A DNA stretch of 64,000 nucleotides, taken from assembly GCF_013122565.1 (NCBI RefSeq), contig NZ_CP053258.1. One strand, 5' to 3'. Positions 63,046 to 64,000 of this stretch are shown one piece after another (the first letter of the stretch is position 1; each line of letters starts with the position of its first letter). This DNA is from Escherichia coli (GTDB taxonomy: Bacteria; Pseudomonadota; Gammaproteobacteria; Enterobacterales; Enterobacteriaceae). The notes beneath the pieces were generated by a model, which had not been told where the DNA came from, did not search any database, and saw nothing but the letters and a program-made list of their open reading frames with translations. The position numbers were made by a program, and so were the translations under genes.

Positions 63046-63381
63046 TGACGACAGCGGCTACGGATGAACCGTGGCCGCAATGTTGATTGCAAGTTGTCGA
63101 TGAAAATTATTGTCCTGAGAGTATGTATTAGAACGTAAAAGTTTGACTATTTCTTCCTTTTTTATAGATCGCGGTTGTATCTCTGCATTAACAAAAACAT
63201 ATCATACAAAATTTTTATGCGTGTAATTAATTCGTTTAGTGAATTTAAAAATACAAATCCATAATTCTCGCTATACTTTTTATAAATATATTCCTAATTT
63301 TAAAGATGTAGTTTTTCCCCATTTTTCACCTATGCTATTTTTGCCATTATTTTTGATTTAAAATATTAAATGGTGGCACTA

Positions 63382-64000
63382 ATGAGTAACATGGAAGTCA
63401 GAAAGTTAACAAAAAACTTACTACTATCGACCTCACTATTCTGTCTTCTCGCCATGGGAAATACCGTTAGTGCATCAACAGATCAGGTTACTCTAACCGT
63501 CGTCGGTGAGGTTATTCCGGGTTCTTGCACGCCTTCATTAGATAACGGCAGTAAAATTGATTACGGTAGTTTTCCCCGTACCACGTTAACTAAGACCTCC
63601 AACCAACTGGGCGTTAAAAATATTAATTTAAGTATTTCCTGTTCGGCAGCCGCAGTGGTCGCCCTGTATGCCACCGATAACCGTAAAACCAGTATTGCCG
63701 ATGGCATCAGCGTTGAAAAATCCTGGGTTGGTAAAACAACGGTTACTGATAAAAAATCGCTGTTCGGCCTGGGTACCACAAAGGACGGTGAACAGATAGG
63801 GGCATTTTCATTAGGCATTGATTACAACAATATGGTTTTTGATACCGGTACAACGAAAACGCTGATAAAAACCGATAACGTCAAAGCTGACCCGATTGTC
63901 TGGCGCTCCAACTCTGATGGCGCAATAGTCGATCATGACTCAACAGCAGGTAGTTGGATTGCTATGACTCCCGGCACCCCCTCTACTACGCCTTTCTCTT
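63382..64000 (+). CDS. Putative secreted pilin-like (chaperone-usher fimbrial-subunit-like) protein, 5' part only; not K-12 BglG
   Basis: Read directly from the sequence, not in the ORF track because no stop is reached: ATG 63382 gives MSNMEVRKLTKNLLLSTSLFCLLAMGNTVSA|STDQVTLTVVGEVIPGSCTPSLDNG...NINLSISCSAAAVVALYATDN..., open for 206 codons to the window end. Sec-type signal peptide with VSA cleavage motif; GEVxxxxC plus a second Cys about 40 aa later resembles the pilin disulfide pair (FimA: GEVVNAAC...NDCDT). Family assignment is by eye only. Confidence 0.5.
   Translation, partial: MSNMEVRKLTKNLLLSTSLFCLLAMGNTVSASTDQVTLTVVGEVIPGSCTPSLDNGSKIDYGSFPRTTLTKTSNQLGVKNINLSISCSAAAVVALYATDNRKTSIADGISVEKSWVGKTTVTDKKSLFGLGTTKDGEQIGAFSLGIDYNNMVFDTGTTKTLIKTDNVKADPIVWRSNSDGAIVDHDSTAGSWIAMTPGTPSTTPFS

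Follow-up and report, generated by a model that had tools for sequence, protein, structure and literature searches.

The segment downstream of phoU

We analyzed a 64,000-nucleotide stretch of the Escherichia coli contig NZ_CP053258.1 (the window), whose right-hand end holds the beginning of a gene cluster directly after phoU. The phoU gene (62320-63045, plus strand; assigned from the open reading frame (ORF) list and the sequence) ends with the TAG stop codon at 63043-63045 and is the last conserved E. coli gene before a novel segment of 6.3 kb. An AT-rich intergenic spacer of 336 bp (63046-63381, plus strand) forms the left end of this segment. It is followed by an ORF whose ATG start codon lies at 63382 and which remains open up to the window end, 206 codons later, with alternative ATG starts at 63370 and 63391. 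This ORF is gene A, the first DUF1120 pilin-like subunit gene of the cluster, and the window contains its 5' part (63382-64000, plus strand; 206 of 245 codons). We consider it roughly 85% probable that this accessory segment, inserted immediately 3' of the phoU stop codon, carries all six genes of an intact beta-clade chaperone-usher fimbrial operon, and that the operon represents a distinct type that was most probably exchanged horizontally.

The complete segment is present in L003, a public contig from the Logan assembly of SRR11451224 that is 100.000% identical to window positions 54001-64000 (L003 position = window - 53,381). There it occupies L003 9665-15971 (6,307 bp, equivalent to window 63046 to ~69352). 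Three DUF1120 genes come first: gene A (L003 10001-10738, 245 amino acids, with its end extrapolated to window-equivalent 64119, 119 bases past the window), gene B (L003 10759-11442, 227 amino acids) and gene C (L003 11469-12194, 241 amino acids). Genes for a PapD-like chaperone (L003 12219-12920) and an 807-amino-acid usher (L003 12930-15353) follow, and the last gene, F (L003 15350-15928), encodes a YhcE-like protein of 192 amino acids and overlaps the usher stop codon. The chaperone matches PF00345 (PapD_N) and scores 298 bits against NF007392 (cut-off 183). The usher has the Pfam domains PapC_N, Usher and PapC_C and scores 930.6 bits against NF011832 (cut-off 723), with the next-best usher model at 212 bits. 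The same six intact genes occur in three E. coli contigs, the other two of which differ from L003 by ~1%.

An earlier sequence-only reading of the window had put the end of phoU at 63045, followed by a 336-bp spacer and an ORF at 63382 that is open for 206 codons, and all of these positions are correct. It had suggested that this ORF might open a surface-structure locus of which most lies beyond the window, and this is borne out by the PapD-like chaperone and the usher downstream in L003. It had also described the region as non-K-12 content; K-12 has bglG 285 bp downstream of phoU. That description was an understatement: neither megablast nor blastn matched 63046-64000 to any of 5,426 complete E. 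coli genomes, and a search with all 6,307 bp of the segment was equally negative in these genomes and in 72,556 plasmids. The pstB-phoU region matches 5,421 of the same 5,426 genomes at 95-99.3% identity, and all of the matches end at window 63044. The DNA immediately to the right of the segment served as a positive control and matches 1,108 of these genomes from L003 15972-15975 onward. The AT-richness that had been noted holds for the spacer (30% GC overall and 25% in its core; 0.245-0.25 in 200-bp windows across 63100-63399 versus 0.52 for the whole window) but not for the operon itself, which has a GC content of 47%, so that strong AT-richness is confined to the spacer.

The gene A product

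The gene A fragment matches residues 1-206 of P0001 with 100% identity, a 245-amino-acid protein (QJU26257.1, WP_171460094.1) that is annotated as 'DUF1120 domain-containing protein [Escherichia coli]' and is found in only a handful of contigs. The genome that bears P0001 is apparently outside the collection of 5,426 RefSeq complete genomes. A DUF1120-type pilin-like protein was among the identities offered by the sequence-only reading, and DUF1120 (PF06551) proves to be the sole Pfam match of gene A (E = 2.4e-25; model positions 1-116 of 116, residues 38-143), with no match to Fimbrial (PF00419). NCBIfam models for StaE, FimG and YadL match weakly over residues 7-90 (E = 0.001-0.02). The DUF1120 family consists of 996 clusters at 50% identity (E <= 0.001). 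Three of these, including its own (representative P0002, 85% identical), match gene A at E <= 1e-30, and the nearest others are at most 44% identical.

C49 and C87, a cysteine pair already remarked on as resembling that of chaperone-usher pilins, are invariant in 115 aligned DUF1120 sequences. At least 90% of these sequences also retain A31 (position -1 relative to the proposed VSA cleavage site), the next-to-last residue Y244 and several glycines. Sequence inspection and family conservation support a predicted signal peptide at residues 1-31, in keeping with the earlier proposal of a secreted protein with a VSA cleavage motif.

A PDB sequence search with gene A gave no match even at E = 10, and a comparison of folds was therefore needed. 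An AlphaFold (AF2) model of gene A built from the family alignment has a mean predicted local distance difference test (pLDDT) score of 88.4. Its best Foldseek matches in the PDB are FimA, FimG, FimF, PapA, PapE and PapK (probability 1.00), with FimA, FimG and FimF making up the top 15, all at probability 1.00. The template modeling (TM) score of these matches is 0.5-0.6 when normalized to the target and only 0.35-0.38 when normalized to the query. The likeness of the modeled protein to classical pilins is at the level of the fold.

The signal peptide and residues 32-48, which precede Cys49, are unstructured and of low confidence in the monomer model, as expected of a donor strand in a monomer prediction. 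Residues 32-48 have an alternating hydrophobic pattern, and this N-terminal extension (STDQVTLTVVGEVIPGS) is donor-strand-like and may function as a donor strand. The mature N-terminus STDQVTLTVVGEVIPGSC shares its pattern with ADVTITVNGKVVAKPC, the donor strand of FimG, and the N-terminal motif DQVTLTVVGEVIPGSC of gene A resembles the same FimG strand.

Assignment to the beta clade

Fimbrial clades are named here according to the scheme of Nuccio and Baumler, cited via later papers. The NF011832 cut-off that the usher exceeds is also exceeded by K-12 YhcD (1273 bits) and by a Stj-like Salmonella usher (1173 bits), and both yhc and Salmonella stj have been placed in the beta clade (PMC5216030; PMC9238391; PMC3373541). 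A gamma-4 label for Yhc was rejected, as the literature assigns it to the beta clade (PMC5216030; PMC9238391; PMC3373541). In a neighbor-joining tree, the present usher forms its own deep branch together with a copy from Salmonella enterica subsp. indica (S. indica) and one from a third enterobacterial lineage. This branch falls within a group made up of YhcD/E. albertii, Cronobacter/Atlantibacter/Citrobacter farmeri and Stj-like/Klebsiella ushers, with FimD, HtrE and YehB (18-22% identical) outside it. Beyond its own three clusters, the best match to the usher among 5.8 billion proteins is 43% identical, and no close relative was found in 100,044 species-representative genomes.

The gene content of the operon agrees with this placement. 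Five other beta loci (from K-12, Atlantibacter, Cronobacter, Salmonella and another E. coli), all at different chromosomal sites, consist of one to three DUF1120 genes, a chaperone, an usher and a gene of ~185 amino acids that overlaps the usher, sometimes with one extra DUF1120 gene. The operon fits this pattern in having DUF1120 subunits, no two-domain tip adhesin and a small YhcE-like gene after the usher. The beta clade has been described as lacking both structural or functional characterization and a typical adhesin gene, and the function of yhcE as unclear (PMC5216030; PMC9238391; PMC3373541).

The Yhc operon of K-12 (gltF-yhcA-yhcD-yhcE-yhcF) has the same parts list, including the small gene that overlaps the usher stop codon, and the two chaperones have the motifs GMVPETS, IP(V/I)xIHP and PASRYG in common. 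Identities between the two operons are 43% for the usher (YhcD), 52% for the chaperone (YhcA), 24% for F (YhcE) and 26-36% for the subunits (GltF/YhcF). K-12 has one subunit gene before the chaperone and one after yhcE, whereas three subunit genes precede the chaperone here and none follows the YhcE-like gene. The K-12 locus lies in the gltBD region at gltF and its yhcE is split by the insertion sequence IS5; the present operon is at phoU and is intact. The Yhc type was ruled out by the locus (phoU, not gltF), the 43% usher identity and the separate deep branch. Some E. coli (GCA_032970605.1, L013) have a beta operon next to gltD, and its 802-amino-acid usher (P0030) groups with the Stj-like and Klebsiella ushers and not with K-12 YhcD; therefore the gltBD-adjacent site seems to hold at least two beta types within E. 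coli.

Stj also belongs to the beta clade and has the same architecture, and the models PRK15301-15304 match the corresponding genes of both loci. The usher P0020, regarded as Stj-like on the basis of its locus and of its scores for PRK15301-15304 and not of a named StjB reference, is 39% identical to the present usher. At the Stj-like locus, which is flanked by lplA and deoD, there is a single DUF1120 gene. The Stj type was ruled out by the 39% usher identity and by a position other than lplA-deoD. Stj has been reported as the only beta fimbria of subsp. enterica (PMC9238391; PMC3373541). Cheng et al. assigned to StjB those beta ushers from subsp. indica and salamae that are 62-75% identical to the reference (PMC9238391), a range that the phoU-linked indica usher falls far below.

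Wurpel et al. (2013) defined 38 E. coli fimbrial types by usher phylogeny and locus position (PMC3559732). Judged by these two properties, the operon is neither Yhc nor any type described at phoU. It is a distinct type, with an usher at most 43% identical to Yhc, Stj or any named relative. The resemblance to the Fim and Pap systems is more distant. The predicted subunit fold matches FimA, FimG, PapA and PapE, and the subunits share with these pilins the disulfide pair and the penultimate C-terminal Tyr. However, the present subunits are ~50-70 residues longer, gene A has no PF00419 match, the operon has no two-domain adhesin and its usher is 20% identical to FimD.

The chaperone subunit anchor

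The chaperone was aligned with seven other beta chaperones and with K-12 FimC, YadV, YehC and YqiH (alignment A5; L003 12219-12917 for the present gene). All eight beta chaperones are without Arg8 and Lys112, and there is no basic residue in the A1 strand (GMVPETSVLL). The Lys112 column contains Pro, which lies within the motif (N/D)(I/L)P(V/I)xIHP, and the motifs VRF and PASRYG are common to the beta chaperones. Pakharukova et al. (2015) reported that beta chaperones lack the classical anchor and have counterparts of the carboxylate anchor of the non-classical type (CsuC/EcpB) (PMC4654587). The absence of Arg8 and Lys112 was thus already published, and we confirm it for this operon and to the Cronobacter, Atlantibacter and Stj-like loci. 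Although this chaperone shares the motifs of the beta chaperones for which the anchor of the archaic and alternative CsuC/EcpB systems was reported, the usher and subunits are those of the classical-type beta clade and not of the sigma or alpha clades.

A related operon in Salmonella and the origin of the segment

In S. indica, the same operon lies directly after phoU with 86.8% DNA identity and protein identities of 77-92%. It has six genes, with AHX05_07325 as the YhcE-like gene, and its gene order and insertion point are identical to those of the E. coli copy. The right flank differs, being yieH-adeP in S. indica and an EspY-type effector island in E. coli. No description of the phoU-linked S. 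indica operon was found in the literature that we searched. A third enterobacterial lineage has a copy that is ~70-75% identical and lies next to acrZ.

Synonymous divergence (Ks) separates the operon from its flanks. Between E. coli and S. indica, the pooled Ks is 0.40 for the operon (1353 synonymous sites) and 0.77 for pstC, pstA, pstB and phoU (798 sites). The GC content at third codon positions is 0.34-0.57 in the operon versus 0.65-0.72 in the flanking genes, and codon bias is weaker in the operon. The lower Ks of the operon despite its weaker codon bias favors an exchange after the genera split. The sequence comparison thus makes horizontal exchange with the lineage now seen in S. indica the most likely origin of the operon, and the horizontal acquisition that the sequence-only reading had surmised fits both the distribution and the Ks values.

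The operon could instead be a vertical relic that stood after phoU in the common ancestor of Escherichia and Salmonella, was lost from nearly all E. coli and most Salmonella or replaced there (by bgl or the EspY-type island), and is retained by indica and one rare lineage of E. coli. A single insertion point directly after the phoU stop codon in both genera would be expected of such a relic, as would spacers that can be partly aligned and that include the hairpin after phoU. Wurpel et al. raise such a scenario for sporadic fimbriae such as Yhc (PMC3559732). The divergence among the E. coli carriers is also compatible with it: the operon differs by 0.08-0.88% and the flanks by 0.5-1.4%, and since the operon diverges like its flanks, it is not a very recent arrival in the E. 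coli lineage. However, a relic would not be expected to have an operon Ks about half that of the flanks when weaker codon bias would normally raise Ks, it would need to have disappeared from every one of the 5,426 complete E. coli genomes, and the third lineage has its operon elsewhere. We regard vertical descent as unlikely.

No integrase, insertion sequence or tRNA gene occurs in or beside the segment in the carrier contigs, and no direct repeats were found at the segment junctions. A mobile-element vehicle was rejected on these grounds and because no plasmid matches. Recombination at a variable site would account most economically for the transfer.

Maintenance and the upstream spacer

When E. 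coli is compared with S. indica, all six genes have a ratio of nonsynonymous to synonymous divergence (Ka/Ks) in the range 0.09-0.40. These sequence ratios indicate continued purifying selection, under which the six genes would have been kept functional.

The spacer is presumed to be the regulatory region of the operon, and it is only partly alignable with the S. indica spacer, which is 100 bp longer. The terminator scan identified a GC-rich hairpin (GCGGCTACGG-ATGAA-CCGTGGCCGC) at 63054-63078 (plus strand), just 3' of the phoU stop codon. It is a putative terminator, although its T tail is weak, and in the spacer alignment the S. indica copy shares the 3' arm and tail of the hairpin (TGGCCGCAAT). 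Farther downstream, the block TATAAATATATTCCTAAT (63281-63298, plus strand) has 17 of 18 bases in common between E. coli and S. indica (alignment A3). It is 84-101 nt upstream of the gene A start codon within spacers that are otherwise poorly conserved, and its conservation makes it a candidate promoter element or regulator site.

Neither an RNA family nor a phase switch was found in the spacer. The Rfam scan gave no family above threshold, and a match to an archaeal snoRNA (19.6 bits versus a gathering score of 39) was dismissed as chance. A search for phase-switch signatures found short AT-rich inverted repeats at chance level only. There is a single GATC, and the spacer does not resemble fimS or the Pap GATC pair. 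Silencing of the locus by H-NS is plausible from base composition. Transcription probably starts in the AT-rich spacer, and expression in the laboratory is probably low.

Such considerations might suggest that what remains of the operon is silent or decaying and no longer functions in this strain. Laboratory expression of most accessory fimbrial operons of E. coli and Salmonella is poor (PMC9238391), IS5 interrupts K-12 yhc, and the region upstream of gene A is AT-rich in the manner of silenced DNA and yielded no promoter consensus. Against decay, the six ORFs are intact and have identical lengths in three E. coli contigs ~1% apart, they are also intact in the S. indica contigs, and the Ka/Ks values are those of constrained genes. 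A remnant therefore appears to be an improbable description.

Proposed fiber assembly and subunit roles

The following scheme draws on established knowledge of chaperone-usher assembly. The Sec pathway would export all of the subunits, the chaperone would capture them by donor-strand complementation, and the usher would polymerize them by donor-strand exchange. The chaperone, having neither Arg8 nor Lys112, probably holds the subunits non-classically, as proposed for beta fimbriae. A, B and C, each with a predicted N-terminal donor strand of 16-17 residues, would build the fiber. The 192-amino-acid protein would be a strand acceptor only and would enter first, as the distal (tip or initiator) subunit.

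A role of the gene A product as a tip adhesin instead of a fiber-building subunit, an option raised by the sequence-only reading on account of its length, is quite unlikely. At 245 amino acids it exceeds FimA-type pilins by ~50-70 residues, and the query-normalized TM score implies extra structure that could bind a ligand. Beta operons are also without a recognizable two-domain adhesin (PMC3373541). However, all DUF1120 members are this long and several copies occur per operon. The protein is single-domain and has a FimG-like N-terminal donor-strand extension that a distal tip subunit would not need. Its gene is the first of the operon, the promoter-proximal position usual for a major subunit, and it is another gene of the operon, the 192-amino-acid one, that is without the extension.

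The 192-amino-acid protein has no Pfam match, but profile comparison places it near the subunits. A YhcE-like profile of 8 sequences aligned by hhalign with a DUF1120 profile gives a probability of 98.7% (E = 2e-16), and the alignment begins by pairing Cys30 of the 192-amino-acid protein with Cys49 of gene A and continues to the C-terminus. Its AlphaFold model (pLDDT 75) has FimG, PapA and the PapG pilin domain as best matches. In all 8 YhcE-like sequences the first conserved Cys is 3-4 residues past the A-x-A site of the signal peptide, as opposed to 16-17 residues in A, B and C. From the profile alignment and the model, the protein is predicted to be a pilin-fold homologue of DUF1120 without a donor strand. 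A subunit of this kind can accept but not donate a strand. If it is assembled, it would therefore go in first and occupy the distal end, and it may thus be a tip or initiator subunit.

A broader proposal, to which we give somewhat less than an even chance, is that the phoU-linked operons of a rare E. coli lineage and S. indica constitute an undescribed fourth enterobacterial beta lineage, and that the YhcE-like gene of every beta operon encodes a donor-strand-less DUF1120 pilin that both starts and caps the fiber. If this is true, then beta fimbriae would possess a specialized tip subunit, although the clade is viewed as having none. In combination with the non-classical anchor, it would make the beta clade a mechanistic intermediate between the archaic and classical pathways.

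Several points weigh against the interpretation of the segment as an intact, distinct and horizontally exchanged beta-clade operon. The content of the operon beyond 64000 was read from L003 and not from the window. The usher tree was made by neighbor joining without bootstrap. The Ks baseline consists of four flanking core genes, and the values spread widely (0.55 for pstB alone and 0.65 for gene A). The consensus scan found no match to the strict sigma-70 consensus in the spacer. The role of the 192-amino-acid protein is proposed purely from a model of moderate confidence and 8 sequences. No beta-clade fimbria has been visualized or demonstrated to be adhesive (PMC3373541; PMC5216030), and deletion of yhc from enterotoxigenic E. 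coli had no adhesion phenotype (PMC5216030).

Variable content at the ends of the pst-phoU region

To the right of the segment is an island with 30% GC (L003 16286-20658, window-equivalent ~69667-74039) that is also present in L001 and L018. It contains genes for an 879-amino-acid type III effector-like protein and a 395-amino-acid pentapeptide-repeat protein, and in strain GF3-3 also espY4. In 1,108 of the 5,426 genomes, the island follows phoU after ~90 bp and replaces the bgl-yieI region of K-12. Its divergence among the three carrier contigs is 2-4%, which is above that of the operon and the core flanks. In strain CFSAN061771, which has an empty site, the 90-bp spacer (L001 7547-7635) includes a degenerate palindrome that resembles a repetitive extragenic palindromic (REP) element (GTAGGTCAGATAAGGCTTTTACGCCGAATCTGGCA). 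A short string like CCNAATCTGGC recurs after the last operon gene in S. indica. The REP-like element or the CCNAATCTGGC-like string might mark a recombination-prone spot.

The 3' end of phoU varies as well. In a 3'-end alignment the PhoU C-terminus of the window is ...GKDPKE, as in Salmonella and in E. coli with the effector island, and that of K-12 is ...GKDSDK. The last four codons thus exist as two alleles within E. coli (GKDSDK in K-12 and GKDPKE in the window and the effector-island strains; site 63031-63045), and therefore the final 13 bases of phoU contain the breakpoint between bgl-type and non-bgl-type downstream regions. As stop codon, phoU has TAG in the window, TAA in CFSAN061771 and K-12, and TGA in S. 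indica. At the other end of the region, CFSAN061771 carries an lpf-O113 fimbrial operon between glmS and pstS (L001 1-2718), where the window (~58100-58500) and its relatives go directly from glmS to pstS. Both ends of pst-phoU are therefore variable sites able to hold fimbrial operons. The position downstream of phoU is a swap point that is occupied by bgl, by the EspY-type effector island or by this operon.

Implications

The beta class is the least understood branch of chaperone-usher fimbriae, for which the literature that we found reports no structure, receptor or demonstrated fiber (PMC3373541; PMC5216030). The locus adds to it an intact, selectively maintained operon at a new chromosomal site. 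There is no mention of phoU in the main text of the E. coli catalogue of Wurpel et al. 2013 (PMC3559732) or in the Salmonella surveys of Yue et al. 2012 and Cheng et al. 2022, in which stj/StjB-type fimbriae are the sole beta fimbriae (PMC3373541; PMC9238391). For E. coli at large, the operon is one more rare accessory adhesin locus, useful for typing and pan-genome catalogues and unsurprising in kind. It is a rare, intact and distinct representative of a known but very poorly studied class. For the whole clade it offers a testable idea, namely that the YhcE-type protein, listed until now as being of unclear function, may be a pilin without a donor strand and hence the distal subunit.

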